From Candidatus Nanopusillus sp. (GTDB lineage Archaea > Nanobdellota > Nanobdellia > Nanobdellales > Nanobdellaceae), in the NCBI GenBank assembly GCA_049414405.1, contig JBMSAQ010000013.1:1-20243 (forward strand): a stretch of DNA of 20,243 bases, given 5' to 3'. The notes under the pieces were generated by a model that did not search any database, was not told the origin of the DNA, and saw nothing but the letters and a program-made list of their open reading frames with translations. Each line of letters begins with the position of its first letter. Positions within the stretch are counted from its first letter, which is position 1. The position numbers were made by a program, and so were the translations under genes. Below are positions 2,867 to 20,243 of the stretch, piece after piece.

Positions 2867-2877
2867 AATATAAAAAT

Positions 2878-3189: not shown

Positions 3190-3207
3190 AGAAAAATTAG
3201 CAAATAA

Positions 3208-3500: not shown

Positions 3501-3522
3501 AGAATAACTAAGATAAAGAAGA

Positions 3523-4823: not shown

Positions 4824-5249
4824 ATGGCAGATACAAATTTAACTTATAATATTACAATGATCATAACCCCTGGGGATATATCATCTATATACTACTATCC
4901 TATATTGTTTTTATTCTTAATGATTTTACCAATAATTATTATTTTTGTAACATTAAAGCTTAAGCTATCTGAAGAAGCAAAAATAATTATTTTCTTTTTA
5001 AATTTAGTATTTTCTTTATTTTTGCCTATATTACTTACTGCTATTTATATGGAATTTCAAACATTAACTAATATCTATGGTCAACTTAATCTTTATAATC
5101 AAATAATCTTTAATATTATGACGGTACAAAACTTTATGATGTTTAGTTATCTTATTTCTATATTGTATCAAGGTTTATGGTTATTTATCACAGCATATAT
5201 TTTTGTTAATCTGTTTTTAATGATAGCATATATGATTAAAAAATGGTAA
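4824..5249 (+). CDS. hypothetical polytopic membrane protein (141 aa)
   Basis: About 4 hydrophobic helices. It has its own promoter-like element. Confidence 0.6.
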   Translation: MADTNLTYNITMIITPGDISSIYYYPILFLFLMILPIIIIFVTLKLKLSEEAKIIIFFLNLVFSLFLPILLTAIYMEFQTLTNIYGQLNLYNQIIFNIMTVQNFMMFSYLISILYQGLWLFITAYIFVNLFLMIAYMIKKW

Positions 5250-5250
5250 A

Positions 5251-5261
5251 AATATATAAAT
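5251..5261 (+). promoter_or_regulatory. putative TATA-like box (aatatataaat)
   Basis: It is centred about 28 nt upstream of the ATG at 5284. Confidence 0.4.
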
Positions 5262-5283
5262 CAATTAAAATATATTATATATT

Positions 5284-5571
5284 ATGGTGGGCCTAGTGCC
5301 AAAAAGATTTACTTTTGGCGTAGCAATATGGGCTTTTATAATGAGCTTTACCTTAAATTATACAATATTATATATGATACCTACTATATTAACAGCTCCT
5401 CTATTATCTATTATAGCAATGGCTGGGGTATTTTATATTGTAGCATTAACATGGTACCTTATGCATAGAGTAGATACTTATAACCCATATAATGCATGGA
5501 AAGCATATGTATTGTTAATAATATTTTATGGTGTTATGGCCTTAATCATTTATTTAGCTTTTAGAATATAA
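5284..5571 (+). CDS. hypothetical membrane protein (95 aa, ~3 TM)
   Basis: Hydrophobic helices. Composition is slightly less AT-biased than the preceding genes. Confidence 0.6.
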   Translation: MVGLVPKRFTFGVAIWAFIMSFTLNYTILYMIPTILTAPLLSIIAMAGVFYIVALTWYLMHRVDTYNPYNAWKAYVLLIIFYGVMALIIYLAFRI

Positions 5572-5573
5572 AT

Positions 5574-6005
5574 ATGTTTGAAAAAGAAAAAAACGAAATC
5601 CGGAACTTAATAATAAAACACGTAGTAGAAGAATTACAGAGAAGGCAAAATTTAACTATAGTTAATATAAACCCATTGGAATATGAAATAACTAAAGTAA
5701 TAAGAGAATCTATTAAAAGAAGTTACTATATAAATGATGATAAACAAAGATCTTTAGCCTATAAGATATCATCTGTAGTAAATGATTTATATAGCGAAGT
5801 TTTAGAATTACATATGATTTTAGATTCTGGAACGGTAAAAGATGAACCTACTAAAATGTTATTAGCTCGTGCAATTTGGTATTTATCATCTAAAATATAT
5901 TCATTAACAAATAAGTATGAAACCGTAACACAAGAAAATGCGACTATAAAGCTAAATATACCATTAAATACAAACCAAAATGTTCAAAAACCTCAGGGTT
6001 TTTAA
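5574..6005 (+). CDS. hypothetical soluble helical protein (143 aa); N-terminus resembles that of the 8031-8363 product
   Basis: It starts 2 nt after the previous stop. The shared pattern xRN[IL][VI][LI]xH[IV][LV][DE] is followed, 29 residues later, by a second similar block. Confidence 0.6.
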   Translation: MFEKEKNEIRNLIIKHVVEELQRRQNLTIVNINPLEYEITKVIRESIKRSYYINDDKQRSLAYKISSVVNDLYSEVLELHMILDSGTVKDEPTKMLLARAIWYLSSKIYSLTNKYETVTQENATIKLNIPLNTNQNVQKPQGF

Positions 6006-6762
6006 TAAATTTAATAACCAATTAGATAGGGTATATGTGATATATTGGGAACCCCCATATACTTATTTAGCTGAGGCCCACCCTTTATTATCGGAGGTAT
6101 TTAAAGGTTTTATAGATAAATGGACTATTATTTCGGATAATCAAGAAAAAGAAATATATGCTATAGTATTATTTTATGGTTTGCCGATAACAAAATACCC
6201 AAAAAATGAATTAGATCCTAATTTAGAACATTTAGAAAATGCGACCAGTAAACATGCATATTATAGAAGTGCGATGATATATCTTTTAGAATATTTAGAA
6301 AATTTAGATTATGGGCAATTTAAGTTATTATTAGATTTAATGACTAAAAAAATAGGGGTTCCTGTTAAGGTAAAAGAATTAGAGGGTAAGAATATAAGTT
6401 TACATACCGGAGTATTTAAAGGAAAATTAAATGATATTTATCTTTTAATACAGGAAGGTAAAAATATAGATATAACAGTACCTAGTGGTGTAAGATGGTT
6501 TGGTATTTTTGGATTTTCATATATGTTTAAAATTTTGGGTGAAGCAATTAAGAGAGACCCACGTATGTTATTCTTTTTAATGGCTGGAATATTTTTAGCA
6601 GGTTTAATAATAGCTGGTGTAATATTTATGTATAAAGCTTTTGGTATATTAAATACGGGTTCATCAAATCCAGGAACTTTTACTATAATTGAAGTAAATG
6701 GAACTGAATGTATTGCTATGAATGGTCAATGTGTTTACTATGTAAATCCGGCCGTACCATAA
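5980..6762 (+). CDS. hypothetical protein (260 aa) with a single C-terminal TM helix and a short Cys-containing ectodomain tail
   Basis: A soluble N-terminal domain, then the TM helix MLFFLMAGIFLAGLIIAGVIFMY, then NGTECIAMNGQCVYY. The start is uncertain because it overlaps the previous gene by 26 nt. Confidence 0.6.
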   Translation: MFKNLRVFNKFNNQLDRVYVIYWEPPYTYLAEAHPLLSEVFKGFIDKWTIISDNQEKEIYAIVLFYGLPITKYPKNELDPNLEHLENATSKHAYYRSAMIYLLEYLENLDYGQFKLLLDLMTKKIGVPVKVKELEGKNISLHTGVFKGKLNDIYLLIQEGKNIDITVPSGVRWFGIFGFSYMFKILGEAIKRDPRMLFFLMAGIFLAGLIIAGVIFMYKAFGILNTGSSNPGTFTIIEVNGTECIAMNGQCVYYVNPAVP

Positions 6763-6765
6763 TTT

Positions 6766-7083
6766 TTATAAACTATTTTCTACAATAATAGAATTTTCAT
6801 ATGTTCTCTTAAAAACATAAATCTCTAATTCTTTAGTAAATAATTTTAAAGGTCTTTTAGTGTTATTATCATATTCTAAAATAATGGTGCCTTTTATATA
6901 TTTGTTATTTCCGATAATACTTTTAATTCTTAAACCTAATTGAGATGCTAATTTAGATAAATCACGTCCAAAATATTTAGGAATTTCGGGGATAGCACTG
7001 CCGACCCCAGCATAAATATGTTCTATAAATTTTCTACTCGCAGGGTTTACGGGGGTTGTTATTTTTATTGCTATTTCTCCCAT
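6766..7083 (-). CDS. hypothetical 105-aa protein, the only antisense gene inside the rightward gene array; candidate regulator
   Basis: I place the start at the internal Met (MGEIAIKITTPV..., ATG at 7083-7081). This removes the overlap with the 7118 gene and gives a TATA-like box at the right distance. The function is inferred from position only. Confidence 0.5.
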   Translation of the reverse strand: MGEIAIKITTPVNPASRKFIEHIYAGVGSAIPEIPKYFGRDLSKLASQLGLRIKSIIGNNKYIKGTIILEYDNNTKRPLKLFTKELEIYVFKRTYENSIIVENSL

Positions 7084-7117
7084 ATACTTATATATTTCCT
7101 CACATATATATAAATAT
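7084..7117. promoter_or_regulatory. 34-bp back-to-back divergent promoter region
   Basis: ttatatat (7087-7094) lies about 27 nt upstream of the ATG at 7118 on the plus strand. atttatatatat (complement of 7103-7114) lies about 25-26 nt upstream of the ATG at 7083 on the minus strand. Each TATA box abuts the start codon of the opposite gene. Confidence 0.45.
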
Positions 7118-7567
7118 ATGGTAAAAGTATTTGATAAACCCCAAATTTTTGAAGAACAAACTATTATAGAATTTGATTTAGATGAATCAAAGCCAAACAT
7201 ATCAACAAAGTATTTTTATAATGGGATTGAAGTAAATTATGCAAAATATTATTTATTACATTTGCAAATAAGAGAGGTTGTATTTAAAAAATTTCTAGAA
7301 TTAAAAACAAAGGAAAGTGGAAATAATTATGGAGTTATTTTTACAGGTTTACATATATTCAGAACAAAAATAGAAAGAAATTTACATTTATTAGCCCAGG
7401 CTGATATTGTAAAATTTGAAAAAACTACGGAAATACAAAAAGAAGGCAATAAAATAAGAATAATTTTAAATATGAGAGAAGTTTACCCAAATGTTTGGGA
7501 ATTTAAGCCAAAAGATATAGATAAAGAATTAGAAAAAGGTTTAATTGATTATATTACAAATAGATAA
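7118..7567 (+). CDS. hypothetical soluble protein (149 aa)
   Basis: An ORF with balanced composition and appropriate promoter spacing. The next gene starts 2 nt after its stop. Confidence 0.6.
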   Translation: MVKVFDKPQIFEEQTIIEFDLDESKPNISTKYFYNGIEVNYAKYYLLHLQIREVVFKKFLELKTKESGNNYGVIFTGLHIFRTKIERNLHLLAQADIVKFEKTTEIQKEGNKIRIILNMREVYPNVWEFKPKDIDKELEKGLIDYITNR

Positions 7568-7569
7568 AT

Positions 7570-8034
7570 ATGGAAAATACATATTCCATACCATACAATC
7601 CCAATACTATAGATTTAAGGCATTATATGTTACCCATGATTGCAAATTTAATAAATGAAATAGTTAACTATAAAGTTACTGTATCACGTAATTATGTTGT
7701 TTTAGATAGAGAATATATAAATAAAGTCGGAGAATTAATATCTTTAGCGAGACTATATATAGAGGCATCTATAGAAAAAGCCGAATATAAAAAAGCAAAA
7801 GAATTTTTAAAAGAAAGTAAAGAAAAGCTATTACTTTATGATTTATATATTAAACAAGGAAATATTAGTTATATAACAATATCTACAATTTTAGAAGATA
7901 TAATAGGGATAATTAATAGAGTAACTGGATCATATTCTGCAGGCAGTATTTATGAGGAATCTAATACTGAAGAATTCATAAATAGAGAAGAAAAAGAAGA
8001 CACTAATAAACCTAAAAGACTTGACTTAAGATGA
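7570..8034 (+). CDS. hypothetical soluble helical protein (154 aa), acidic C-terminus
   Basis: It has an ATGA overlap with the next gene at 8031-8034. It shows weak similarity to the 5574 and 8031 products (REYINKV...LYI versus EYEITKV...YYI). Confidence 0.6.
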   Translation: MENTYSIPYNPNTIDLRHYMLPMIANLINEIVNYKVTVSRNYVVLDREYINKVGELISLARLYIEASIEKAEYKKAKEFLKESKEKLLLYDLYIKQGNISYITISTILEDIIGIINRVTGSYSAGSIYEESNTEEFINREEKEDTNKPKRLDLR

Positions 8035-8363
8035 GTTTTTTAAAAGAAAATTTTAGAAATATTGTTTTAAGCCATATTTTAGACTTTGAAATATCTTATG
8101 TTACGGCAAAAACGCATTTAACAACAGACACCATTCAAGAATTAAAACGTAAAATTTTAATGTTGTTATTTGACTACTATAATATTGTATCTTTATTTGA
8201 AAATGATGAAAGAATTAAAAAAGAAAAATTTGATAGCATAAAACAATTTGAAGATACCATTCTAAAATTACCTATCTATTGGGATTCTTTAGATGAGATT
8301 AGGAATGTATATACACAAATCATAAAACGCATTAATGAATATTTATTTAAAGAAGAAACTTAA
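8031..8363 (+). CDS. hypothetical soluble helical protein (110 aa), likely paralog of the 5574-6005 product
   Basis: FRNIVLSHILDFE aligns with IRNLIIKHVVEEL. ELKRKILMLLFDYYNI aligns with EITKVIRESIKRSYYI at identical spacing. Confidence 0.6.
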   Translation: MSFLKENFRNIVLSHILDFEISYVTAKTHLTTDTIQELKRKILMLLFDYYNIVSLFENDERIKKEKFDSIKQFEDTILKLPIYWDSLDEIRNVYTQIIKRINEYLFKEET

Positions 8364-8432
8364 CCAAATATATTAATATATTAATATATTTTTATAGCAA
8401 ATCTAATATACTGCTAACAATAATATAATATT
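8364..8432 (+). promoter_or_regulatory. promoter region of the structural-type module
   Basis: A 69-nt A/T-only intergenic region with tandem atattaat units and TATA-like elements (tttttatag at 8389-8397, ctaatatac at 8403-8411). The latter is about 26 nt upstream of the ATG at 8433. Confidence 0.4.
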
Positions 8433-8840
8433 ATGAACTGGTGGGCAGCAATGTTCATAGATTTGTTGATCGTAATATTAGTAACAGGTATGATAGCAAC
8501 ACTAGCAATAAATATATTGGGTGTATTTGGTACAGCATTATTACCAATGTCAGTAAGGCAATTAGGAAATGGTTTTGATCAATTAGGGCAATTAAACGCC
8601 ACTTATGGAAGTGACCCAGCTGTGGCAGCACTTGTTAATTCATTAAGAAATAATATGGTTACTATAGTAAATGATCAGGTACAGGGAACAACTCAAGCTG
8701 TTACCGGATTAAATCAAGCAATTCAATTCTACATAGGATTAGTACCTGTAGTAGTAATATTAGTAATTGCTGGAGCATTCATTGGAATTGTATTACAATT
8801 CGCTGGTGGAATGTATAGGCAAGTAGCTGTGACAGTCTAA
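8433..8840 (+). CDS. candidate major capsid/structural protein (135 aa) with two hydrophobic helices flanking a polar Gly/Gln/Asn/Thr core
   Basis: The N-terminal hydrophobic segment is FIDLLIVILVTGMIATLAINILGVFGTALLP. The C-terminal segment is FYIGLVPVVVILVIAGAFIGIVLQFAGG. This architecture and the LVP-containing second helix resemble SSV1 VP1-type capsid proteins. The gene has visibly higher GC and different codon choice, its own promoter, and T-tracts downstream. Confidence 0.5.
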   Translation: MNWWAAMFIDLLIVILVTGMIATLAINILGVFGTALLPMSVRQLGNGFDQLGQLNATYGSDPAVAALVNSLRNNMVTIVNDQVQGTTQAVTGLNQAIQFYIGLVPVVVILVIAGAFIGIVLQFAGGMYRQVAVTV

Positions 8841-8848
8841 GGCTAAAA

Positions 8849-8866
8849 TTTTCCTTAATTTTTTCT
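8849..8866 (+). terminator. putative oligo-T attenuator/terminator after the capsid-like gene
   Basis: T-tracts tttt (8849-8852) and tttttt (8859-8864) lie between the stop at 8840 and the next ATG at 8868. Archaeal termination uses oligo-T signals. Confidence 0.3.
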
Positions 8867-8867
8867 T

Positions 8868-9365
8868 ATGTCTAAATATGTATACTTTAAGAATATTTAT
8901 TTTGGAAAAGATTCTTTAGCCAAAATTTTCTATGATAAAGATAAAATAGAAGATTCTTTAGATTATAATGCCGTAGTTGTTTCATTCTTAATAGATGCTG
9001 CAGATATTTTAAATCAAAATGCCATATTATCACGTATTGCATATTATGATGGTACTAACATAAGACCTATTTTAATGGAATGGAATAAAGAAACAATTGC
9101 CGGACGTACTAAAATTTTAATGGATTTAGGTAATATTTATGATAAAAATACAAAAGATTTATTAAAACACTTTTTAAATCAACTAAATGCTGATGATAAT
9201 TATGTAAAATCTTTAGCTTTATATTTAGCTGTTATTATTGCATCTAAAAAAGGTTTGGGTCTACATCATCAACAAATCTACGATAGGATAAATTATCTTA
9301 AATCAATTGGAATAGTTGAATCGGTTGAAAAGGTAAAAAAATTATACGAATTATATAAAAGATGA
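8868..9365 (+). CDS. hypothetical soluble protein (165 aa)
   Basis: An ORF with an ATGA overlap to the 1001-aa gene. I recognise no motifs. Confidence 0.6.
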   Translation: MSKYVYFKNIYFGKDSLAKIFYDKDKIEDSLDYNAVVVSFLIDAADILNQNAILSRIAYYDGTNIRPILMEWNKETIAGRTKILMDLGNIYDKNTKDLLKHFLNQLNADDNYVKSLALYLAVIIASKKGLGLHHQQIYDRINYLKSIGIVESVEKVKKLYELYKR

Positions 9366-12300
9366 GCAATACATTATTATCAAATCAACAGGATAATGTC
9401 CAAAGAATACAATTAATGGATACATCTTCAGCCGTAAATTCTGCTTTAAGTCAATATGGTTATACTTTATCATATGGTGATACTGAAAGACTTAAAAGTT
9501 TACAACCCGGCCAAACTACGACTGTATATGCAACCGGTAATAGATACGGAGCTATATTAGAAGTAACTTATCATAATGATGGTACTTATACTATTAGATC
9601 TACAACCCCATTAAATGTAAGTGGCCAATGGATAGATATAAATCAAACCGTAAGGTCTCCTACAGTTACAGTAGGTTATTCTAGTGGTAATATTCAATAT
9701 ATTGCTACTACAGGATATTCTACTACAGGGAACGTATATTTAAGAGAATCGGGTACTCCAGGTAGTACTACTTTAGCTACATATAATGTTAATGTGAGCG
9801 TACCTATTACACATCAAATAACGGATACAGAAATAAGATTTAGTCCGGGCACCCCTCAAGTAACTACTACTTTACAATCTATAAATATACCTTCTCCAAC
9901 TCAAGAACAATTACAAAATAGAGCAATAACTCAATCACAAATAAACAATAATTTACTTTTTAGTTATTCATCTTTACCTGAAAATAATTTGTGGTTTGGT
10001 TATTCACGCATGCCATCAACAAATACCCAAACTACTAATGTTAATGCTAATAATCAAACAAATTTATTTAATAATCCAATAATTAATACAATAACATCTT
10101 TGCCCGTAATTAGAAACGTATATAATGTAGGTAGAAATGTTTATCATACAATGTCATCTATGGATTGGGGAGATGTTTGGAAAAGGCTTAATCAACCAGA
10201 ATTACGTACGCCATCAGGAGAAAGGGCTAATGTTATTTCTTTTACAATGCCACCAATTGGTCCTGCGAGTGCTACAGGAATTACAAATATATTTAGAGCC
10301 GGTGGAAATACTTTAAGATCTACATCTTTAAGTAGTCCTACGGTAAGGGAATTAGCCAAAGAATACGCTATAAATACTGCCGGATTTACGGCATTAAGTT
10401 TAGGGATTAATGAAGCTCATAGTAGGTTAACAACCGGTGAAGGTTTAACTGCCGAACAAGCAAAGCGAATAATTGGTGAATCCGTTGCTTTTGCGATACC
10501 ATTTACTACATTTGCTAAAGGTTTTTCATTAGCATCTCATCCGGTATTAAGTACTTTTGTAAAAGAACAAACATCACCCACAAAAGCAATATTAGCAAAA
10601 TCTTTATATGATGTGGGTGGTGGTTTTGTATCAGGTACTGGTGCGAGTTTTGTAAGTCAAGGATTTAGTAAAGCAATGGGCTGGAGAGAAGATATTAACC
10701 CATATGAAGCTTTAGCAATGGGTTCATTTACTGGGGGTACTACTGCAGCAATTAGAGGTTTTCAAGTATTACATGCAGCAAAAACTGGAAACTATGGCGC
10801 ATTTGCCACTAGAATAATTCCAGAAGAAATTAAAGATGTGAGTTTAACCCCTATTTCTACTGTGGTTTCTAAAGATGGATCTATAATAACATATTATGCC
10901 GGTAAAGCCATAGGACAGCCACAAATTGGTCAAAAAGTATTAACACAAAAAGATATACCAAATATAAAACCAATTGAATATCAATTTTTAGCAATGGAAA
11001 GATTAGAACCAATTTTGCCTAAAACAGAACCCATAGGAAATGCATTTATGACTACAATGGGTTATAGAGGTGAATTTATAGCACAAGCTGGTGTAAAAAG
11101 AACAATTGGAAAAACAGAAGGTGAACTTATGGGTTTATTTGTACCCACAGAAAAAATAAGTCCTAGAGACTATGAATTATGGGTCCGAGCTAATTTTAAA
11201 GATTTAATTAAAAAACATCCCGAATTTATTCAATCAAAAGACGTACCTAAAGAAGGTTTACAACTTTCAAAACAAATGTTAGAGGGTAAACCCATAAAAG
11301 AAATAGAAAACCCAAATGTTAAAACCCTTAATATATATTATCCATTATCTGAATTACAAACTAGAAATGTAGATTTTAGTAAAAATATAGCCGGTTATAT
11401 TGTGTTTAGGTCTAGAGGGGGTATTAACTTACCTAAAGGAGAACATTATGAATATGTAAAAGAAGGGGTGGGTTTAGCTTATTATGTTGGGGGGGATAAA
11501 AATCAATTAGCTCAAATAGCCACAACATGGGGAATTATGCGTGATCAATATAAAAAAGGATGGTTTGGTACCCATCAATATGTTTCCGTAGGATCCCCAG
11601 AAAGAGGTTTTAATGTATTTGGTTATGGTAAAGCTGTGGATCCAGTAGGGGTGGAATTAACCTTAACTAAAACCATTGAAAGAACAACCAATATAAAAGG
11701 TGTGCCATTAAAAAACAAACAAATAGAGCAAATAGCAGAACAACAATTAAAACAATTATTAGCATATTCCTCTGAGAGAGTAATACCACCTTATTATAAC
11801 CCAAAGGCACCCCCAGCTTTCGGTATACCATCATTAAATATCATTAATGTTAATCAACAATTATTACCAAATTTGAATAACATTATAAGACCTGAATTTA
11901 ATATGGAAAAATTAAAGGAAAGGGTTACCCAAACCATGCCAAAATTAGATGTAGTCCAAACAACGCAAAATGTTAGGCAAAATATAATTTTACCATTTCA
12001 AGGATTAAGATCTTTACAATTACAAGGATTGCAAACCCAACAACGGATAGGTCAACAAAGAATAATAGCACGTGATCTAATAGTAACGTATGATATTTAT
12101 AGAAGTACAATACCAAAACCAATGGTTACTATGGATGTTAAAACTATTAGAATAAACCCTCCACCACCAATAGAACCAACATTCATACCAATAAGACCTA
12201 GAATAGCCCCCATACCACCATCATCAAGGCCTCCTTTCATACCACCATTCTTACCACCAATGGTACCACGCATAGGTCCATCTCAACCAGGTCCACCAAT

Positions 12301-12367
12301 ACCATTAGGCAGAGCTAAAAAGGTTGAATTAGATGTGGTTTATACATTTAATAGGTTATGGGGATAA
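9362..12367 (+). CDS. large structural-type protein (1001 aa): Ser/Thr-rich N-terminal region, Gly/Ala-rich amphipathic core, Gln-rich then Pro-rich C-terminus
   Basis: A long uninterrupted ORF with higher GC. The central segment is GFTALSLGINE...GGGFVSGTGASFVSQGFSKAMGW...GSFTGGTTAAIRGF. The C-terminal segment is PPPPIEPTFIPIRPRIAPIPPSSRPPFIPPFLPPMVPRIGPSQPGPPIPLG. No signal peptide is seen. Confidence 0.75.
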   Translation: MSNTLLSNQQDNVQRIQLMDTSSAVNSALSQYGYTLSYGDTERLKSLQPGQTTTVYATGNRYGAILEVTYHNDGTYTIRSTTPLNVSGQWIDINQTVRSPTVTVGYSSGNIQYIATTGYSTTGNVYLRESGTPGSTTLATYNVNVSVPITHQITDTEIRFSPGTPQVTTTLQSINIPSPTQEQLQNRAITQSQINNNLLFSYSSLPENNLWFGYSRMPSTNTQTTNVNANNQTNLFNNPIINTITSLPVIRNVYNVGRNVYHTMSSMDWGDVWKRLNQPELRTPSGERANVISFTMPPIGPASATGITNIFRAGGNTLRSTSLSSPTVRELAKEYAINTAGFTALSLGINEAHSRLTTGEGLTAEQAKRIIGESVAFAIPFTTFAKGFSLASHPVLSTFVKEQTSPTKAILAKSLYDVGGGFVSGTGASFVSQGFSKAMGWREDINPYEALAMGSFTGGTTAAIRGFQVLHAAKTGNYGAFATRIIPEEIKDVSLTPISTVVSKDGSIITYYAGKAIGQPQIGQKVLTQKDIPNIKPIEYQFLAMERLEPILPKTEPIGNAFMTTMGYRGEFIAQAGVKRTIGKTEGELMGLFVPTEKISPRDYELWVRANFKDLIKKHPEFIQSKDVPKEGLQLSKQMLEGKPIKEIENPNVKTLNIYYPLSELQTRNVDFSKNIAGYIVFRSRGGINLPKGEHYEYVKEGVGLAYYVGGDKNQLAQIATTWGIMRDQYKKGWFGTHQYVSVGSPERGFNVFGYGKAVDPVGVELTLTKTIERTTNIKGVPLKNKQIEQIAEQQLKQLLAYSSERVIPPYYNPKAPPAFGIPSLNIINVNQQLLPNLNNIIRPEFNMEKLKERVTQTMPKLDVVQTTQNVRQNIILPFQGLRSLQLQGLQTQQRIGQQRIIARDLIVTYDIYRSTIPKPMVTMDVKTIRINPPPPIEPTFIPIRPRIAPIPPSSRPPFIPPFLPPMVPRIGPSQPGPPIPLGRAKKVELDVVYTFNRLWG

Positions 12368-12379
12368 TAATATAATAGG

Positions 12380-12790
12380 ATGAGAGCTATAGGGTCATTA
12401 ATATTAAAAGTAACCGTAGTTATATTATTAGTAATATTTATAGGTATTTTAGCGATGGTCTTATCTACAGTTTTTAATACAACATCAATTTTAGCTGGGG
12501 TCGGGTATACGGCGCAATATAGTGCATATGGTATTTCTTATAAAAATTGTTTAAGTAATGCTAATTTTTACGGATATAATGCATCCGTATGTGATAATTT
12601 GCTTAATGTAACAAATAATACGGCAAACACTTTATTATGGACGGGAAATTATGCAGGAACTTTTTCAAATCCTATGTTATGGGCTATAATATTTATTATT
12701 ATAACTGCGGGGTTATATGTTACGTCAATACAGGCAGTACAATTTGGGCAAAAGATAACCGTAGTAAAAACTAGAAGAAAAAGAAAATGA
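12380..12790 (+). CDS. membrane protein (136 aa) with N- and C-terminal hydrophobic helices, a glycosylation-sequon-bearing core and a basic tail; candidate minor structural protein
   Basis: The helices are LILKVTVVILLVIFIGILAMVLSTVF and MLWAIIFIIITAGLYVTSI. The core carries sequons (NAS, NVT, NNT) and the tail is KTRRKRK. It has an ATGA overlap with the 1131-aa gene. Confidence 0.6.
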   Translation: MRAIGSLILKVTVVILLVIFIGILAMVLSTVFNTTSILAGVGYTAQYSAYGISYKNCLSNANFYGYNASVCDNLLNVTNNTANTLLWTGNYAGTFSNPMLWAIIFIIITAGLYVTSIQAVQFGQKITVVKTRRKRK

Positions 12791-15700
12791 TCAAAAAATT
12801 CCTTAAATTATTTGGAATATTTCTTTTAATATTCTTTTCTTATAATGTTTATTCTTTAAACGGATGGCAATATTATAGGCAAATTACAATAAATAACACC
12901 CAAAACCCAAATAATTTAATTGATTATCAGATATTGGTGACTTTAGACACACAATCTTTGATATCACAGGGTAAAATGAAATCGGATTGTGGCGATATAA
13001 GATTCACAGATTCTGATAGAACCACATTATTAAATTATTGGGTAGAATCGGGTACGTGTAACTCACAAAATACTTTTATTTGGGTAAAAGTCCCACTTAT
13101 ACCGGGAAATTCTAATAAAACTATATATTTATGGTATGGAAATCCAAACGCTATAAGTTTAAGTAACGGAGATTTAGTTTTTGAATTCTTTGATGATTTT
13201 GATGGAAATACTTTAAACACATCTAAATGGACCGTGAATGGTTATGATGGGTTTTGGGGGGTTTTTTATAGTGTTTCTAATTCAATGCTTACCATATGGT
13301 CGGATAATAGATGGCGAATTTTAAGAATGAATAGGAATTTTGGACCGAATGATACAATAGCCATCGAAGTAAAATTTAGAAAAACTGCAGCAAGTGCGTG
13401 GCATGTTAATTATTTAGTACAACATAATGGTGCAAATCATAATAGATTAGGACTTAGTGATGAACATTACCCAGGAGATGATATGGGAATACAATTGGTT
13501 GTTAATAATAATTGGTATTATCCGAAAAATTTTGGTTCATTTTCTAATAATGTATGGTATATTTCAAGAATTATAAAAAAAGATAGTACTACTTTATATT
13601 TAGATGTTTTAACTTCAAATAGAGGTTTTATTAATTCATATGAGACTACACAATCGGCATGGTCATCCGTAATATGGACATGGGTTACTTGGCAATTTCA
13701 TAATACTAATGTTACGTATGATTGGGTTTTTGTTAGAAAATATACAAACCCGGAACCAATTATTATTTTAGGATCTGAACATGTGCCTTTAACTTCAACA
13801 ATTTCAGTAAATACATTAACAAATTTCCAATTTAATGTATCTATATATAACCTAATTTCCGAATATGTAAATTACACGGTTTATTTAAATGGTTTAATAT
13901 TAACAACCAATAATATTTCAATAAATGCGTTTCAAACTTTAACAACCCCTCATGAATTTCCTTATTTATTAAATCAATCGGGTACTTATAATTTAACTGT
14001 AATAGCTTATGGGCAAACCTCTAGAGTCACATCTGTTTCAATTGCTATATTTAATATTCAACTAGATCAATTAAATGTAACTTTAGAACCCTATTATACT
14101 TATAATAACATAAACTATACAAATCTTTATAATTCAAACTTAAGGATAACTTATTATTGTATGAGACCTAATAATACTTTAATAATTTATAATAATATAA
14201 CAAATAGAACATTGCAAATTAATTTATCATGTAATTACATACAAACAATAAATAATTTAAGAGTTAATCTTACCCCAATTTTACAAAATAATACTTTAAA
14301 CCATATTAATGGATCATTATTATATGGCAATCAATCATTTAGAAATATAAGCTTTATACCATTATGGAATACATTAAATATAACTTTAACTACAAACATT
14401 CCAGCATTTTCTATATATACATCACCATTAAGTTTAAATTATTCTATAAATGTAAGAGATGTTTTACCAAACGTTGTATGTAATATTACATTATATGATA
14501 ATAATACAATTGTGCAAACACATCAAACAACATTAACAAATGCGTCATCACCAATATATTCATGGACTATATCACAAGCACCAATACATAACCTTAGGTG
14601 GCATATTTATTGTTATAATCCAGTAAATTTAACATATATCATCGATCAAAGGAATGGTACTTTTTACTATAATAGCTTTGATTTTAGAATGGAAGATACT
14701 GGAAATGTACCATCAAATATATCTTATTCATTATCATTAATGTGTAACAATGGTACTACTATTTATTCAAATGCAAATATGACTACTTATACAATATATG
14801 CATGGACTAATGATCAATGTAACTTTATATTAGTATCGCAAAATATTCAGGGTATTACTTATACTATGGGTTATAGTACTAATTTATTATCAAGATATTC
14901 ACATCAATGGCCAATATGTTTAATAAATCCACAATTATTGTATTATAGTAATTTAATAGTAGGTAATCAACCATATCAAGATACATTAATAGCAGTATTA
15001 AATCCACAAACAGGATGTTATTTATTAGGATCTTATCTATATTTATTATCATCTAATGTTTATTACGCACCAATATCGGTAAGAACCGGGGCATTATATT
15101 CAATAAGAGTAAATAATACATTTTTAGCGACGGTTCAAGGGCAGCAACAGCAAGCAATTTCTTTAGATTCTTTAATTAGTAGAGTAATAGCATCAAATAA
15201 TCAAACAATAAATCTTATAGTAGGTTATCCTGTAGTTAATTATACAAACGAAAGTGGAGTACCTAAATTAACAATTATTGCGCCAGCAAATATTTCATCG
15301 GCAATAGTAACTATATACCAAAACAACCAAATATATACCAATTATACTTTTGAATCTATAGGTTTGAATATATTAGATATATATTTAAGAGATTTGCCAT
15401 CTAATTATACATTTAGTTCTACAAACTATGTAGTAGTTAAATTAACATATACCAATGGACTTACCCATACTGTTACCTATCCATTTGATTATCTTGAAAG
15501 AATTGCATTACCGGCATTTTTAGTATATTTCTTATCAATAATACTATTATATACATGGATTAGGACTTTTTCTTATTATCAAAAGTTAATTTTCGCAGGC
15601 TTTGGTTTAGTATTAATATTGGCTTTATTAACATCATTTATAATAGATTCTATCGCACCTTTATTCTTAACTGCAGGTATATTTTTATTCTTTATAGCAG

Positions 15701-16182
15701 ATGTTATAAATAAAACATACTTACCACAATTAACACAAGATCATCCTTTATTTAAACTAATCTATATGGCATTTAAATTCTTTATGGTATTATCTTTTGT
15801 AGGTACCTTTTTAGTATTTTTATTGGGACCTCAGGGATTATATCATATAGGAATTCCCGAAATAGATAAATATATGAATGACATGAAAAGAATAATGGAC
15901 TCTTCAAGCTCTACTATAACAGAAATGCAACGTAATATGTTTTTTGTACCATTCGGTATAGTAATATTAGCAGCCAGTATAATTCAAGCTATATGGTTAG
16001 GAATACAAATAATGGGGGTATTTATATCATATATGATATCGCCATTATCCGTAGTATTAGGACCATTTGCGAATATATTGGCGATGGTAATTCAAGGAAT
16101 ATTAGTATACGGATCAATAATAGTAATAGTAGTGTATATGATAACAATGGTTTTCGCATTGGCCGGAAGAAATCTATTTTAA
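12787..16182 (+). CDS. secreted/anchored adhesin-like glycoprotein (1131 aa): signal peptide, DUF2341-like domain, ConA/LamG-like lectin-type domain, sequon-dense beta-rich region, polytopic C-terminal membrane anchor
   Basis: The signal-like N-terminus is MIKKFLKLFGIFLLIFFSYNVYS. The DUF2341 signature is GWQYYRQITINN...YQILVTLDT...CGDIRFTD...LNYWVE...IWVKVP...IYLWYGNP. The following FDDFDGNTLNTSKWTV is typical of ConA-like/LamG folds. I counted roughly 40 N-x-S/T sequons by hand. About 6-8 TM helices run from about nt 15500 to the end. Confidence 0.8.
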   Translation: MIKKFLKLFGIFLLIFFSYNVYSLNGWQYYRQITINNTQNPNNLIDYQILVTLDTQSLISQGKMKSDCGDIRFTDSDRTTLLNYWVESGTCNSQNTFIWVKVPLIPGNSNKTIYLWYGNPNAISLSNGDLVFEFFDDFDGNTLNTSKWTVNGYDGFWGVFYSVSNSMLTIWSDNRWRILRMNRNFGPNDTIAIEVKFRKTAASAWHVNYLVQHNGANHNRLGLSDEHYPGDDMGIQLVVNNNWYYPKNFGSFSNNVWYISRIIKKDSTTLYLDVLTSNRGFINSYETTQSAWSSVIWTWVTWQFHNTNVTYDWVFVRKYTNPEPIIILGSEHVPLTSTISVNTLTNFQFNVSIYNLISEYVNYTVYLNGLILTTNNISINAFQTLTTPHEFPYLLNQSGTYNLTVIAYGQTSRVTSVSIAIFNIQLDQLNVTLEPYYTYNNINYTNLYNSNLRITYYCMRPNNTLIIYNNITNRTLQINLSCNYIQTINNLRVNLTPILQNNTLNHINGSLLYGNQSFRNISFIPLWNTLNITLTTNIPAFSIYTSPLSLNYSINVRDVLPNVVCNITLYDNNTIVQTHQTTLTNASSPIYSWTISQAPIHNLRWHIYCYNPVNLTYIIDQRNGTFYYNSFDFRMEDTGNVPSNISYSLSLMCNNGTTIYSNANMTTYTIYAWTNDQCNFILVSQNIQGITYTMGYSTNLLSRYSHQWPICLINPQLLYYSNLIVGNQPYQDTLIAVLNPQTGCYLLGSYLYLLSSNVYYAPISVRTGALYSIRVNNTFLATVQGQQQQAISLDSLISRVIASNNQTINLIVGYPVVNYTNESGVPKLTIIAPANISSAIVTIYQNNQIYTNYTFESIGLNILDIYLRDLPSNYTFSSTNYVVVKLTYTNGLTHTVTYPFDYLERIALPAFLVYFLSIILLYTWIRTFSYYQKLIFAGFGLVLILALLTSFIIDSIAPLFLTAGIFLFFIADVINKTYLPQLTQDHPLFKLIYMAFKFFMVLSFVGTFLVFLLGPQGLYHIGIPEIDKYMNDMKRIMDSSSSTITEMQRNMFFVPFGIVILAASIIQAIWLGIQIMGVFISYMISPLSVVLGPFANILAMVIQGILVYGSIIVIVVYMITMVFALAGRNLF

Positions 16183-16188
16183 CCTAAA

Positions 16189-16521
16189 ATGGATCAAATA
16201 AACTATATAAATAATACAATTCAAATGTCCGAAATTGTTAACAAAACATTACAATTTATAACATTTAAAGATATTTATTCATACATATTATTAAATATTC
16301 TTTTAGTCGCTTTAGTGATTGCATTAGAAAGCCAAAGGGTTGAAAATATCGTTATATTATTATTAGAAATAGCTATAATACAATGGTTTTTTGTATTTGC
16401 ATTATTAGGATTATTAAGTATAGGTTATATAGATTTTCCACCAACAGTAATAATACAATATTTTATGGCACCGGCAGTAATATTATTAGTATTAGCTTTA
16501 GTATTATCTAAAGTAACATAG
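16189..16521 (+). CDS. hypothetical membrane protein (110 aa, ~3 TM)
   Basis: Hydrophobic helices. It starts 6 nt after the previous stop, and its stop directly abuts the next ATG (tagATG). Confidence 0.55.
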   Translation: MDQINYINNTIQMSEIVNKTLQFITFKDIYSYILLNILLVALVIALESQRVENIVILLLEIAIIQWFFVFALLGLLSIGYIDFPPTVIIQYFMAPAVILLVLALVLSKVT

Positions 16522-17868
16522 ATGGTATATATAAAGGATATATCAGATATAAGACGTTTAAAATCCGACGACATATTTGAGTTGTTTTCTAAAGGGGAAT
16601 TATATAAAAAAGTATTAGATAAAAAATGGTCAGATAAAAGCAACATTATTAAAAAGTTTCAAAACCCGTTTGATTTTTTAGAAGGTACTGCAGAAACAAT
16701 TAAACAAAGTGTAACATCATCAATTGATGAAGATTATTGGTTATTGGTTTTAGGTGAACCCGGTACGGGTAAATCTACTTTATCCGTAGCATTGTATAAA
16801 CATATTATGTATAAGTTAGGTTATACTTTAGATCAAATTAAAGATCATTTATATATAGATGTTTGTTATTTACCATATGATTATTTAGGCAGGATTAATT
16901 TACATGGTGATGAAATTGAAGAAAAAGGCAAAATATTCCCACATCCTATAATTTTAGATGAGGCTCATAATATGTTTGATTTATTTGCTGAGGGTTCTAC
17001 AAATGTGGCGAGAAAAATATTACAAAGAATATTTGAAATAAGAGAATATAGATTAGTCCATATAGTAAATACACAAATACCTCGCCATATTGCTAAAAGG
17101 GCTTTAGAAAGATTTCATTCATTAATAATTTTATGGAAAGAACCCATATATTTTGGTGATGAAAAAACAAAAGCTTTAGAAGAAACATATCTAAGCTATA
17201 TGCAAAATATTTTAAAAATAAAACCACGGACGGATGAAGGTATTGGGTATTTTTTATGGGGGGTACTTTATGGCGAAAGTTTTACACATGATGTTTTAGG
17301 ATGGATTATAAAGCACGGAGTTAGAATTAGAGAATTAAGAAAAATTCTTATAAGATTTGATCCTAAATTTATTTTCCCTATGACATTAATATTGCATGAG
17401 GTTTCAGATTTAAGACCTATCTATTTTAATATAAAACTATATAATAATGGAATTAAGAAATTATATGATGAATTTGGAATAAAAGGATCTAAAAAAACAA
17501 TATTTTTAAAAGCTTTAACCGAATTAGGTAAATATTTTAATAAGATGGATCCAAATAAAAGAAATGAAAAAGGATATATTGTATTAGATGAACCCATACT
17601 TATAGAAATAGATAGTAAAACAGAATATAAAGTATTAAAAAAAATAGGCCGTGTAAAATTTAATATAGACCTTGAAAAGATCTCTAAAAAAACTAAAAAG
17701 AAAGAAAAAACAAAGACTAAAAAATTAATAGAAACATCCTCTTATTCTGATGAATCTTACGTTAATATTTATAGTATTAATCCTAAAATTTATAATTTCC
17801 TAAAAAGCAATTATATTACATTACAAAAAAGATATAAATTACATGAAGCTATAGGATTTAAGCTATGA
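16522..17868 (+). CDS. P-loop NTPase (448 aa), candidate DNA packaging/transfer or replication ATPase
   Basis: Walker A is LGEPGTGKST (nt 16753 onward). Walker B is PIILDEAH (DEAH at nt 16957-16968). A Lys-rich KKTKKKEKTKTKK segment lies near the C-terminus. Confidence 0.75.
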   Translation: MVYIKDISDIRRLKSDDIFELFSKGELYKKVLDKKWSDKSNIIKKFQNPFDFLEGTAETIKQSVTSSIDEDYWLLVLGEPGTGKSTLSVALYKHIMYKLGYTLDQIKDHLYIDVCYLPYDYLGRINLHGDEIEEKGKIFPHPIILDEAHNMFDLFAEGSTNVARKILQRIFEIREYRLVHIVNTQIPRHIAKRALERFHSLIILWKEPIYFGDEKTKALEETYLSYMQNILKIKPRTDEGIGYFLWGVLYGESFTHDVLGWIIKHGVRIRELRKILIRFDPKFIFPMTLILHEVSDLRPIYFNIKLYNNGIKKLYDEFGIKGSKKTIFLKALTELGKYFNKMDPNKRNEKGYIVLDEPILIEIDSKTEYKVLKKIGRVKFNIDLEKISKKTKKKEKTKTKKLIETSSYSDESYVNIYSINPKIYNFLKSNYITLQKRYKLHEAIGFKL

Positions 17869-18352
17869 TGATTTTCTTTTTCTTTTTCATTATATAGATT
17901 GTATTTATTATATTTATAACGAATATAATAAGAGAACCCACTATATAACCTAAAATATTACCTATGGTTTTTGAAATTATTAAGAATATTACCCAAAATA
18001 TTATAGATGTAATTGATAAATAGATTAACATATGAATAAGAGGGGCTTTTTTGTATAAGATGTCAACTAATTTAAATTGTAATTTTAGTTTTTCTAATCC
18101 TGTTGATAATACCGATTCTTCAGTTAATTTATTTATATTATATATTTTGTTAATTATAGGATATGTTACTTTCCAAAATGCAAAATCTATAAAACTATTT
18201 ACTGGAACTTTAGCGCCATATACATTTATAGTTAATATTGGTCTTTTAGTCAATTTACTAATATAGCTAAATACCGGTAAGAATAATAGAGCACTTACTA
18301 CAATACCTATAATAAAAGAAATTATAAAATTATGATCCATGTTTCCACCCAA
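17858..18352 (-). CDS. hypothetical membrane protein (164 aa, ~3-4 TM)
   Basis: Hydrophobic helices. It overlaps the upstream AAA+ gene, and the start may instead be the Met at 18340. Its 3' end overlaps the convergent ATPase gene by 11 nt. Confidence 0.55.
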   Translation of the reverse strand: MGGNMDHNFIISFIIGIVVSALLFLPVFSYISKLTKRPILTINVYGAKVPVNSFIDFAFWKVTYPIINKIYNINKLTEESVLSTGLEKLKLQFKLVDILYKKAPLIHMLIYLSITSIIFWVIFLIISKTIGNILGYIVGSLIIFVINIINTIYIMKKKKKIIIA

Positions 18353-19766
18353 AAGTACCTTTTACCAAATCTTTAGCCACATTTTCAATTATGCCAGCAT
18401 TTAAATCTGTTTCAGGATCATCTACAATAGTATTTAATTCTAAACCTCTTAACTTTTTAGCTATCATAATAGCAAATGTTCTAGACCTGCCTTTTAAATC
18501 TGAAAGTTTTGATGAGTTATACTTTGCTTTAAATATTTCTTGCTTTATTTGGTTAATCATTGCAATAAAATAAGGCGCACTCATTGTTTTATCTATTATA
18601 TATTTATTTACATCAAATTCTTCATCTATTATACTTATAATTGCTAATCTATCTACAAATGCACTAATTGATCCATGATTTAACCCCCTCTTAGCTAATT
18701 CCCCCTTTAACCATTCTCTCGCATCTTTTATAAAGTCTATTAAATTTTCATGACTAATTTTATCAACATTACCTAAAAATATAAATCCCACATCCCTTTT
18801 AATTACATCTCTCTCAGATTTAGATGAAGCACTTCCTTTTTCTATGTGCCATACCCCTTGTGCTAATCCACTTTCTGAATATGATATAAATTCATCAAAT
18901 TTATCTTTTTCCAAATTTTTATCAAATGCATCTATTACAATATAGTCATTATGAAATATGGCTCCCAATATTCCAGAACGTGCGTCCATAATTAATCTTG
19001 TTCTTGAAGGAAATTTTCCAAATATTGCAATTTTCATAATATTAATTAACTTTACATAAAATGTTGTTTTACCTGTGCCGGGTTTTGTAAATTGTAAAGT
19101 ATGGGTATACTTTGTAAAGTCATCATTTAATTTTATGGGAAATAGTGATAAAACCCTAGGTAAATATATTTTTCTTAATAATATATATTCATCTTTATTC
19201 ATATCAAAGGGGTTTATTCCTATGGCACATAAGAACAAATCAAACCAATTAACTTTATATTTTTCTTTAATTTCTAATAATTCTTTAGTCCTTATTTCAA
19301 CCTTTGCTAAATCCATATAAGATTTTACATAGAATTTATTACGCTTTTTATCTTTTGCAATAATATTTAAATATAATAATCTTGCTTTCATGACCTCACT
19401 TAATATATCGATTAAATCTTTATCGTTTATATCGGGATTATTTCTTTTTAAAGTATCTTCATTAAAAACAACATTAACACCATTTGATAGTTTTGCTATA
19501 AATTCTAAGGGAGATCTTACCTTTATCTCAGTAACCCGTCCAATAAATTCTATAGAACCTTTTCTTAATAATTTTAATATAAATTCTTTTTCCTTTTCGG
19601 GTTTGCTTAAATATATAATATCAACAATATTTAATTTCCAATCATGTATAAATGGCAAATATGGGCTAATACCTTCATATTTTTCTTCAGAAAGATCTAT
19701 ATCTTCAGGTATTGTATTCATAAAAATTGGTTCATTAAAAATTTCTTTTAAGTCATAATCAACCAT
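18330..19766 (-). CDS. AAA+ ATPase (478 aa) with MCM/MoxR/Mg-chelatase-like (helix-2-insert clade-like) motifs; candidate replicative or remodelling ATPase
   Basis: Walker A is FTKPGTGKTT (nt 19062-19085). Walker B is YIVIDAFDKN (compare MCM IDEFDK). The sensor-1-like motif is GFIFLGN. The Arg-finger-like motif is SAFVDRLAIISI (compare SRFDL / ALLDRF). The ~220-aa N-terminal domain is unrecognised. Confidence 0.65.
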   Translation of the reverse strand: MVDYDLKEIFNEPIFMNTIPEDIDLSEEKYEGISPYLPFIHDWKLNIVDIIYLSKPEKEKEFILKLLRKGSIEFIGRVTEIKVRSPLEFIAKLSNGVNVVFNEDTLKRNNPDINDKDLIDILSEVMKARLLYLNIIAKDKKRNKFYVKSYMDLAKVEIRTKELLEIKEKYKVNWFDLFLCAIGINPFDMNKDEYILLRKIYLPRVLSLFPIKLNDDFTKYTHTLQFTKPGTGKTTFYVKLINIMKIAIFGKFPSRTRLIMDARSGILGAIFHNDYIVIDAFDKNLEKDKFDEFISYSESGLAQGVWHIEKGSASSKSERDVIKRDVGFIFLGNVDKISHENLIDFIKDAREWLKGELAKRGLNHGSISAFVDRLAIISIIDEEFDVNKYIIDKTMSAPYFIAMINQIKQEIFKAKYNSSKLSDLKGRSRTFAIMIAKKLRGLELNTIVDDPETDLNAGIIENVAKDLVKGTFGWKHGS

Positions 19767-20202
19767 TTTTTAGCTTATGTTTTAGATATTTTATGCTTTT
19801 TAGTATCACATAAGTTATTGGTGGTGTTAATAAAAGTGTAAGTCCTATTTCTTTTATTAATAATTCAGGTATATATGTAAATATAGAAGCTATATATAAT
19901 GCAAATATTAATAATATATCTATAATTACTGTAAAGATAATTATCGATCTATAATATTCCCATTCTTCTTTATTTTCCATAAGGAAACCTATCCCAATTA
20001 TTGCTGATGTTATAAAGAGTGCAAATGTAACAGCTATGGGGGGAGGCATTTCTTTAATAGTAGCGACTAAACCCATAGGTGCATCTTCAGTTAATCCTAA
20101 TGAATACATTAATAGATATAATATTACCATAATAAACCCTGTAAGTAAAAAAGCTGCTGTAGCCAATCCTAAACTTTCTCTATGGGATAATTCTTTATTC
20201 AC
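19759..20202 (-). CDS. hypothetical polytopic membrane protein (147 aa), GTG start
   Basis: About 4 hydrophobic helices. The start codon is GTG (complement of 20200-20202) and overlaps the upstream stop as GTGA. Its 3' end overlaps the AAA+ gene start by 8 nt. Confidence 0.55.
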   Translation of the reverse strand: MNKELSHRESLGLATAAFLLTGFIMVILYLLMYSLGLTEDAPMGLVATIKEMPPPIAVTFALFITSAIIGIGFLMENKEEWEYYRSIIIFTVIIDILLIFALYIASIFTYIPELLIKEIGLTLLLTPPITYVILKSIKYLKHKLKNG

Positions 20203-20243
20203 TTTTCTAATTTCTTTAATTCTTCTTTAAGCTTTTTCTTTTC
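20199..20243 (-). CDS. 3' end of a further minus-strand gene truncated by the window edge (…EKKKLKEELKKLEK*)
   Basis: Found by hand. The frame is open from the window edge to the TGA at 20201-20199, which is coupled to the next gene's GTG. The tail is charged and coiled-coil-like. Confidence 0.35.
   Translation of the reverse strand, partial: EKKKLKEELKKLEK

Follow-up and report, generated by a model that had tools for sequence, protein, structure and literature searches.

A mobile element of Nanopusillus-type Nanoarchaeota with a conserved fifteen-gene module, and its candidacy as a temperate membrane-containing virus

Nanoarchaeota are obligate ectoparasites with genomes of ~0.6 Mb, and to our knowledge only one nanoarchaeal virus has been described so far. 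Nanoarchaeotal virus 1 (NAV1) is listed in the NCBI taxonomy (taxid 2661841) and was published by Munson-McGee, Rooney and Young in J Virol in 2020; it reportedly has a 35.6-kb circular genome with 52 open reading frames (ORFs) and comes from Yellowstone. The Pleolipoviridae, archaeal viruses resembling membrane vesicles, have a gene pattern made up of one small membrane protein, one large spike glycoprotein that is anchored, a further membrane protein and a P-loop NTPase. PAV1, a spindle-shaped virus of Thermococcales, shows a layout in which ORF121 precedes the lectin ORF676, the membrane protein ORF140, the lectin ORF678 and the membrane protein ORF138, with ORF375 further on. The pT26-2 family (pT26-2, pGE2, pMEFER01 and the TKV/MMPV elements) consists of integrative elements of ~20-38 kb with seven core genes common to all members (t26-5p, 6p, 7p, 11p, 13p, 14p and 15p) and a syntenic block that encodes two large proteins, numerous transmembrane (TM) proteins and an ATPase of ~440 amino acids (aa) (PMC6972569). 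Here a locus of similar layout is described from Candidatus Nanopusillus sp., contig JBMSAQ010000013.1, whose 20,243 bp were analysed in full and are referred to below as the window.

The window is the entire contig and was placed by NCBI in a Candidatus Nanopusillus metagenome-assembled genome (MAG) of the Nanoarchaeota. NCBI protein ACO2ON_01690, from a MAG of Candidatus Nanopusillus sp., is identical in sequence to the window's 1001-aa protein (giant protein 1, G1), relatives of the contig are likewise binned in, or named, Candidatus Nanopusillus, and the G+C content of 21-35% is in keeping with the low GC of Nanopusillus. The host of the element is a nanoarchaeon (Nanopusillus), neither a member of the Thermococcales nor of the Methanococcales. 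The window represents a large part, though probably not the whole, of a temperate mobile element carried by Nanopusillus-type Nanoarchaeota. With confidence that stands at the halfway mark, we read this element as a temperate, membrane-containing virus of Nanopusillus, with positions 4824-17868 as its virion and host-recognition module. A viral character is suggested by the homology of the head of a second giant protein (G2, 1131 aa) to a rudivirus protein and of a 478-aa ATPase-domain protein (Brx478) to a rudivirus and lipothrixvirus ATPase; by the signal segment, many glycosylation sequons, polytopic anchor and swapped head domain of G2; and by a layout that parallels the structural region of PAV1, together with the failure of Pfam, PHROG and fold searches to recognise a VirB4/HerA/TraG-type ATPase.

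The rightward genes at 8433-17868 (135, 165, 1001, 136, 1131, 110 and 448 aa) overlap or are spaced by at most 27 bp, and the leftward genes at 17858-20202 (164, 478 and 147 aa) are convergent with them. The ORF map of an initial annotation of the window was reproduced with its lengths, strands and junctions, and the view taken there, that these genes are the conserved core of a mobile element that integrates in archaea, with hairpin membrane proteins, two giants, a surface glycoprotein bearing a domain of carbohydrate-binding type and two ATPases, was borne out. The conserved block, which had been taken to begin at 8364, in fact starts at ~4824, and all-against-all BLASTP of the loci sets the limits of the module at 4824-17868. 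The features of the module and of the adjoining leftward operon are as follows.

4824-8363, plus strand (105-aa gene on the minus strand): left half of the module, with membrane proteins of 141 and 95 aa and proteins of 143, 260, 105, 149, 154 and 110 aa
8433-8840, plus strand: hairpin membrane protein of 135 aa with a Q/N/T-rich stretch of ~55 aa between two long hydrophobic segments (hydropathy)
8868-9365, plus strand: 165-aa soluble conserved protein, family-specific, 42-49% identity across 4 loci
9362-12367, plus strand: G1, 1001 aa, ATGA overlap with the 165-aa gene
12380-12790, plus strand: second hairpin membrane protein, 136 aa, two hydrophobic segments and 4 sequons in the loop
12787-16182, plus strand: G2, 1131 aa, 4-nt overlap with the 136-aa gene
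16189-16521, plus strand: 110-aa three-segment membrane protein, invariably between the G2 and ATPase genes
16522-17868, plus strand: 448-aa P-loop ATPase, final gene of the module
17858-18352, minus strand: membrane protein of 164 aa with two segments, its gene facing that of the ATPase tail to tail in every element
18330-19766, minus strand: Brx478, a 478-aa BrxL/Lon-like ATPase-domain protein
19759-20202, minus strand: membrane protein of 147 aa with three segments, at the head of the leftward operon and 41 bp from the contig end

The gene order within 4824-17868 is 141, 95, 143, 260, 105 (minus strand), 149, 154, 110, 135, 165, G1, 136, G2, 110 and ATPase. All fifteen genes are present in E2, a divergent paralogous element of 23,551 bp, and in sister contig L008 as far as that contig extends, and a large part of them in sister contig L007, at 26-66% identity. 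In the left half the order is kept in E2 and L008, again at 26-66% identity, and the 260-aa and 149-aa genes occur in L007 also; the 260-aa protein has a C-terminal TM segment and the 105-aa gene lies on the minus strand at 6766-7083. The 136-aa gene stands invariably between the two giant genes, and the triad of G2, 110-aa and ATPase genes turned up in over 15 divergent contigs, some metagenomic and some belonging to Nanopusillus MAGs. Since gene order is conserved over so many divergent loci, these ORFs must be genuine genes. Searches of all the proteins against Pfam, PHROGs, NCBIfam and PADLOC returned only DUF2341, weak AAA, BrxL_ATPase, integrase and methylase matches, and the left-half proteins belong to no Pfam, PHROG or NCBIfam family. 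Sequence searches of the PDB (with profiles of the ATPase, G1 and the 135-aa and 165-aa proteins, and with G2 and Brx478) gave no useful match, and no PDB relative of the 165-aa protein was found. An AT-rich 22-bp repeat or palindrome was also seen at 7072-7128, at the divergent junction of the leftward 105-aa and rightward 149-aa genes, with weak hairpin-type Rfam matches on both strands that lie far under threshold.

For G2 hydropathy predicts a signal-like N-terminal segment, an ectodomain of ~875 aa (of beta type) and 6-7 C-terminal membrane segments. Among its relatives it ranges from 1131 to 1513 aa. The ectodomain holds 39 N-x-S/T sequons against ~20 expected. The initial annotation had called it a lectin-domain glycoprotein with a polytopic anchor; the anchor stands, and the domain at the head is Pfam DUF2341 (E 6e-31), a ConA/LamG domain being detected only in the L007 orthologue (L007 11436-14855), in the segment after DUF2341 (E 6e-23). 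At the equivalent place of the window's G2 (13204-13809) ConA/LamG was neither detected nor alignable, and this segment has no Pfam match. The post-DUF2341 domain is thus ConA/LamG in the L007 type and an unrelated domain in the window and E2 type, a domain swap of the kind seen as cassette exchange in receptor-binding proteins. G2 is a candidate surface adhesin or receptor-binding protein. Its N-terminal head has a counterpart in a protein that 48 rudivirus records contain, annotated 'putative structural protein' in one of them; through residues 15-363 of the G2 of a sister contig the match reaches 35-43% identity and E values down to 9e-25. In SIRV4 the DUF2341 protein is ORF37 (581 aa), two genes away from the 1058-aa ORF35, for which hhalign found no homologue in the module.

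G1 is basic (net charge +25), poor in sequons and by hydropathy has no strong TM segment, and it varies from 1001 to 2020 aa among relatives. Its N-terminal beta domain and a C-terminal motif are conserved; hydrophobic helices rich in Gly/Ala occupy the centre, and the tail is rich in proline. The AlphaFold model is poor, with a predicted local distance difference test (pLDDT) score of 43, and is confident only for residues 10-175, the N-terminal beta domain. No PDB, fold or profile match of G1 was obtained, and a Foldseek search with so poor a model is meaningless. Its gene has a G+C fraction of 0.32-0.35, against 0.21-0.28 elsewhere on the contig, which accompanies the Gly/Ala/Pro/Thr-rich composition and the proline-rich C-terminal tail. 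Of the small proteins, those of 135 and 136 aa do have two hydrophobic segments each, as the initial annotation had it; its 'capsid-like' label for the 135-aa protein comes down to these segments. The 135-aa hairpin protein may be regarded as a candidate virion or envelope protein. It matched no PDB chain and no SIRV4 capsid protein, and neither hairpin protein has profile similarity to SSV1 VP3 or PAV1 ORF121, targets so short and divergent that this negative is not decisive. The capsid protein of SIRV4 (ORF17), compared by hhalign with all 13 small families of the module, scored at most 0.4%.

The 448-aa protein carries a Walker A motif (GEPGTGKS) and a Walker B motif (ILDEAH), has weak AAA matches in Pfam and is modelled by AlphaFold at a pLDDT of 84. 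It is a divergent P-loop, AAA+-like ATPase, for which an initiator, an assembly or a packaging role would each be possible. Its best viral fold matches were ATV ORF286 and a protein of a Nitrosopumilus spindle virus, with template modelling (TM) scores of at most 0.31 on the query. A homologue of 438 aa, 47% identical, lies at 10001-11317 of locus L011, a Nanobsidianus stetteri contig (APJZ01000001.1), and is either a remnant or a cellular source of the module's ATPase.

The initial annotation named an AAA+ ATPase in the leftward operon; the ATPase domain is there, and it is BrxL/Lon-like only (PF13337, E 2e-8, residues 146-413; PHROG 6542, E 4e-23). By tblastn Brx478 matches a gene in 48 records of rudiviruses, lipothrixviruses and related viruses, with E values down to 9e-15. 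Its SIRV4 counterpart is ORF8, which adjoins a Cas4-like gene. The genes common to rudiviruses include a Holliday junction helicase and a resolvase (PMC3569270), and we infer that ORF8 is this helicase. Brx478 is probably a replication or recombination helicase, and it belongs to a second, movable module. Elements with just 40-55% identity in their cores carry copies of it that are 77-85% identical, and its position differs among them. In sister contigs L046 and L047 the 147-aa and 478-aa genes are preceded by conserved genes of ~258, 64 and 69-77 aa that are missing in the window, and in L050 this upstream block occurs with no 147-aa gene.

The left end of the window carries the genes and sites below.

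192-827, minus strand: short tyrosine recombinase or integrase, 211 aa (PHROG 9208 'integrase', E 2e-16; Pfam Phage_integrase, E 2e-4)
993-1985, minus strand: D12-class (Dam-like) N6-adenine DNA methyltransferase (Pfam MethyltransfD12, E 5e-18; PHROG 56, E 3e-54)
1986-2154, no strand: intergenic region flanked by the divergently transcribed methylase gene and 62-aa ORF, with 2.3 tandem copies of a 27-bp unit (2024-2084) and then a 48-nt palindrome
2345-4785, plus strand: variable cluster of small polytopic membrane proteins of 173, 103, 115, 167 and 140 aa with a soluble 62-aa ORF (hydropathy)

The integrase is 44-46% identical to those of the sister elements and matches the short integrases of pGE2 and pMEFER01 (E 1e-15 to 1e-14); it is not of the SSV type. 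Homologues of the variable cluster (TM173, TM103, s62 and TM167) are merely scattered across the sister elements. The methylase is 84% identical in protein and 88% in nucleotide sequence to the E2 copy, which is placed elsewhere in that element. DNA identity to E2 is 82-88% in G2 (12782-15615), the methylase (985-1921) and the G1 N-terminal domain (9394-9910), with 82-86% over the 2.8 kb of G2, whereas the remaining core genes have just 35-55% protein identity. This patchiness suggests that two elements of the same population recombined recently. The integrase, the Dam methylase, the mosaic recombination and the near-absence from reference genomes make this a mobile element and not a chromosomal locus; a core chromosomal locus is ruled out by the distribution, the integrase and the mosaicism. 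The 48-nt palindrome in the intergenic region has arms at 2086-2109 and 2110-2133 that are 92% complementary and directly follows the 27-bp repeats, and the region at 1986-2154 could, on sequence, be an operator or an origin. A 32-nt sequence that encloses the palindrome GTCTATA...TATAGAC occurs twice in direct orientation (850-881 and 936-967, 88% identical). Both copies fall in the gap that separates the start of the integrase gene from the stop of the methylase gene, and they may be binding sites for a recombinase or regulator.

The window is probably incomplete, because it ends 41 bp past the 147-aa gene and lacks the block that precedes this gene in the sisters. L047 joins the block of ~258-, 64- and 69-77-aa genes to an E2-type integrase ~8 kb away, and since the leftward block is thereby tied to the integrase the sister elements span at least 33 kb. 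Of one sister contig, 36,204 bp long, 11 kb are unread, a size that fits the module's missing left half. Sister elements encode Hjc, TnpB and UPF0175; Hjc is not in the window. The TnpB gene, of the IS605 type (Cas12f-like), lies at L046 4386-5540 within the 36-kb element. Two divergent paralogues of the TATA-binding protein (TBP), 39% identical, were seen in the 36-kb sister contig (L046 176-745 and 12162-12758), as was a high-GC tRNA-Gln(UUG) (Rfam 45 bits; L015 13124-13195), of which no repeat was found. These TBPs and the tRNA-Gln either are encoded by the element or mark an integration junction, and apart from them, in this one contig, no housekeeping genes occur over 20-25 kb in the sister elements. 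No tRNA was detected in the window.

The family is restricted in reference collections. Among 185,579 species genomes (one genome per species) the 448-aa ATPase is carried by 1 short Nanopusillus contig only, so the locus is near-absent from reference genomes and not, as the initial annotation had allowed, a set of conserved chromosomal genes present in all related genomes. The 165-aa protein has 7 representatives per 1.84 billion proteins, and the ATPase family amounts to 75 protein clusters, with an E2-type ATPase cluster on record for a 113-kb contig whose sequence is unread. Identical or near-identical copies of the ATPase region were found in 4 further assemblies, among them metagenome JGI 3300025374, the source of E2. 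E2 (ACO2ON_01530) has the same locus-tag prefix as the window, and two divergent copies, the window and E2, thus occur within one MAG and one sample.

To relate the module to described elements it was compared with pMEFER01, pT26-2 and pGE2 from a plasmid collection and with PAV1 and SSV1 from a phage collection. In tblastn G2 was run against plasmids and phages, and nine other proteins, joined to a single query of 2,784 aa, were run against phages alone; matches were confined to DUF2341 and the ATPase Brx478, and G2 had none to pT26-2, pGE2 or pMEFER01. By BLASTP of all window ORFs against pMEFER01 the integrase alone matched. When 17 module families were compared by hhalign with 11 pT26-2 families one score exceeded 8%, that of the 448-aa ATPase with t26-14p (69%, E 4e-5, 326 columns). 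The same ATPase scored 55% with SSV1 B251 and 72% with PAV1 ORF375, the latter over 22 Walker-A columns only, and as the t26-14p score is no better than these scores with unrelated proteins the similarity is at the level of the P-loop. The giants matched none of t26-5p, 6p, 10p, PAV1 ORF676, 678 and 898 or SSV1 C792 in hhalign, with at most 1.4% against the PAV1 and SSV1 proteins, and G2 against SIRV4 ORF37, a positive control, scored 97.6%. With BLAST and profile comparisons of the core proteins negative, the likeness to PAV1 and pT26-2 is architectural only. The fit to both groups proposed by the initial annotation therefore survives in layout, and for pT26-2 in the short integrase; it does not extend to homology of the core proteins, beyond the P-loop in the case of pT26-2.

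If the element is a virus its parts might work as follows. The two ~135-aa hairpin proteins and other small membrane proteins would build or line a lipid-containing particle. G2 would be exported through its signal segment, heavily N-glycosylated and anchored by its 6-7 helices, and its head, DUF2341 plus the variable domain, would bind a nanoarchaeal surface glycan and so act as the receptor-binding protein. G1, with its basic charge, few sequons, glycine-zipper-like helices and proline-rich tail, might be an internal or terminal component and could insert into the target membrane as DNA is delivered. The 448-aa AAA+-like ATPase may power assembly or DNA loading. The leftward operon would form part of an exchangeable replication and recombination module, with a rudivirus-type ATPase or helicase and, in the sisters, Hjc; the integrase would insert the element into the host chromosome and the Dam methylase would protect its DNA.

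A number of results weigh against a virus. No known capsid protein, portal or packaging ATPase was recognised in the element, and neither sequence nor profile comparison tied the hairpin proteins to a known capsid protein. IMG/VR, scanned with three query alignments (A1, A4 and A2), gave zero matches. DUF2341 occurs also in cellular surface proteins, so the rudivirus link is a link of domains. Foldseek searches of the 448-aa ATPase against the PDB and BFVD returned only generic AAA+/ASCE proteins (RFC, Vps4, ORC, HerA and Zot; TM score at most 0.31 on the query), and its Nanobsidianus stetteri homologue is solitary among host genes (an AsnC regulator, a split AspRS and a restriction-modification gene), with none of the other module genes. 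The check for att sites and circularity suggested in the initial annotation was negative: neither the window nor the sister contigs yielded an att site, a terminal repeat or a circular junction. The principal rival explanation is an integrative plasmid whose module is an apparatus for DNA or protein transfer (secretion, vesicle or conjugation-like), analogous to the proposal for pT26-2 and evolved independently in Nanoarchaeota. The architecture is like that of the conserved region of pT26-2, the short integrase has homologues in pMEFER01 and pGE2, the ATPase reaches its hhalign score with t26-14p over 326 columns, the glycine-rich hydrophobic helices of G1 resemble a t26-6p homologue annotated 'glycine zipper' in pGE2, and there is neither a capsid hallmark nor an IMG/VR match. 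However, the pT26-2 core families stay at or below 8% in hhalign except for the ATPase, itself no better than against SSV1 B251 and PAV1 ORF375, there is no VirB4/HerA-like fold, and the detectable homologies lead to viruses; such a plasmid is unlikely, though it is the rival we take most seriously.

Nanoarchaeota rely on surface contact with their host, and the locus might instead be a strain-variable Nanopusillus chromosomal island encoding a surface attachment apparatus or adhesin complex for the Acidilobus/Sulfolobales host cell, perhaps a domesticated element. The binning of the contig in a Nanopusillus MAG, the adhesin-like and seemingly glycosylated G2, the chromosomal ATPase homologue of Nanobsidianus stetteri and the record of an E2-type ATPase cluster on a 113-kb contig would suit this. 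Against it stand the two divergent copies in one MAG and one sample, the absence of the locus from nearly all reference nanoarchaeal genomes, the presence of integrase, methylase, Hjc and TnpB with no flanking housekeeping genes in contigs of 20-36 kb, and the mosaic exchange between copies, and we consider an island improbable. The name 'BrxL' given by NCBI to the 478-aa protein would point to a BREX-like anti-virus defence island, for which the PF13337 BrxL_ATPase match and a DNA methylase on the contig might speak. Yet the protein has the ATPase domain alone and no Lon protease domain, neither the window nor the sister loci hold the partner set BrxA/B/C, PglX and PglZ, PADLOC matched Brx478 to no BrxL or other BREX model, and the closest annotated relatives are virus genes, all of which makes defence a very remote prospect. 

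Returning to the temperate virus, we propose, tentatively and with less assurance than for the virus itself, that it represents a new family of membrane-containing viruses specific to Nanoarchaeota, with a 15-gene morphogenesis module that lacks homologues among the virus and plasmid families described so far (NAV1 lying outside the comparison), complete genomes of ~35 kb that carry their own TBP paralogues and tRNA, and gene exchange with the rudiviruses of the crenarchaeal host.

Such a virus would be the parasite of a parasite. The element family is well sampled, yet its module is wholly unannotated and missing from the IMG/VR scans, and it offers concrete candidate proteins for the movement of DNA between minimal cells. 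The shared domains also show that genes pass between a symbiont's mobile elements and viruses from the lineage of its host. The likeness to the Rudiviridae and Lipothrixviridae (Ligamenvirales) lies in the BrxL-like ATPase, the DUF2341 domain and, in the sister elements, Hjc, and SIRV4, one of the matching viruses, is of Yellowstone hot spring origin. The element differs in its integrase, its many membrane proteins and its lack of a SIRV-type capsid protein, and unlike the Rudiviridae it showed no inverted terminal repeats within the window. By sequence comparison genes are shared with rudiviruses and family membership is not. An adnavirus was also considered and is ruled out, there being no homologue of the capsid protein. 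With NAV1 the element has in common a nanoarchaeal host and a genome size, 35.6 kb as reported for that virus, near the at least 33-36 kb of the sister elements; no record of the phage collection matches the module, so NAV1 is either outside that collection or unrelated.

The gene pattern of the Pleolipoviridae is the same as that of the module, but the proteins here are far larger and tblastn, the one method used for this comparison, found no match in the phage collection. Spindle-shaped viruses have a small VP1-type capsid protein (SSV1) with two hydrophobic helices. The 135-aa and 136-aa proteins have two hydrophobic segments and match neither the SSV1 and PAV1 profiles nor a PDB chain, negatives that are not decisive for capsid proteins so short and divergent. 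Membership in the Fuselloviridae or the PAV1 group is not indicated, hhalign having revealed no homologues of SSV1 C792, B251, B277 and A291 or of PAV1 ORF676, 678, 898 and 375. PAV1 resembles the module in its small hydrophobic protein and its large lectin-type proteins that alternate with membrane proteins of ~140 aa and lead to a P-loop ATPase; it differs in that ORF121, 676, 678 and 898 have no sequence or profile similarity here and the ORF375 match is confined to Walker A. The pT26-2 family shares the layout of its conserved region, two large proteins with small TM proteins and a ~440-aa ATPase and then an integrase, and a homologous short tyrosine recombinase (pMEFER01, pGE2), which is a non-core, exchangeable gene. 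None of its seven core proteins is homologous beyond the P-loop, its hosts are Thermococcales and Methanococcales in contrast to the nanoarchaeon here, and the 448-aa ATPase is not recognisably HerA/VirB4-like; membership in that family is not supported, given the absence of core-gene homology and the different host phylum. Integrases of that family (type I SSV-like or type II) target a tRNA gene; no tRNA or att site was found in the window, and the tRNA-Gln of the sister contig has no repeat there. The element would thus be an independent case of the pattern of giant proteins, membrane proteins and an ATPase, alongside pT26-2 and PAV1, and a comparison of these three unrelated versions could help to settle what the pattern does.

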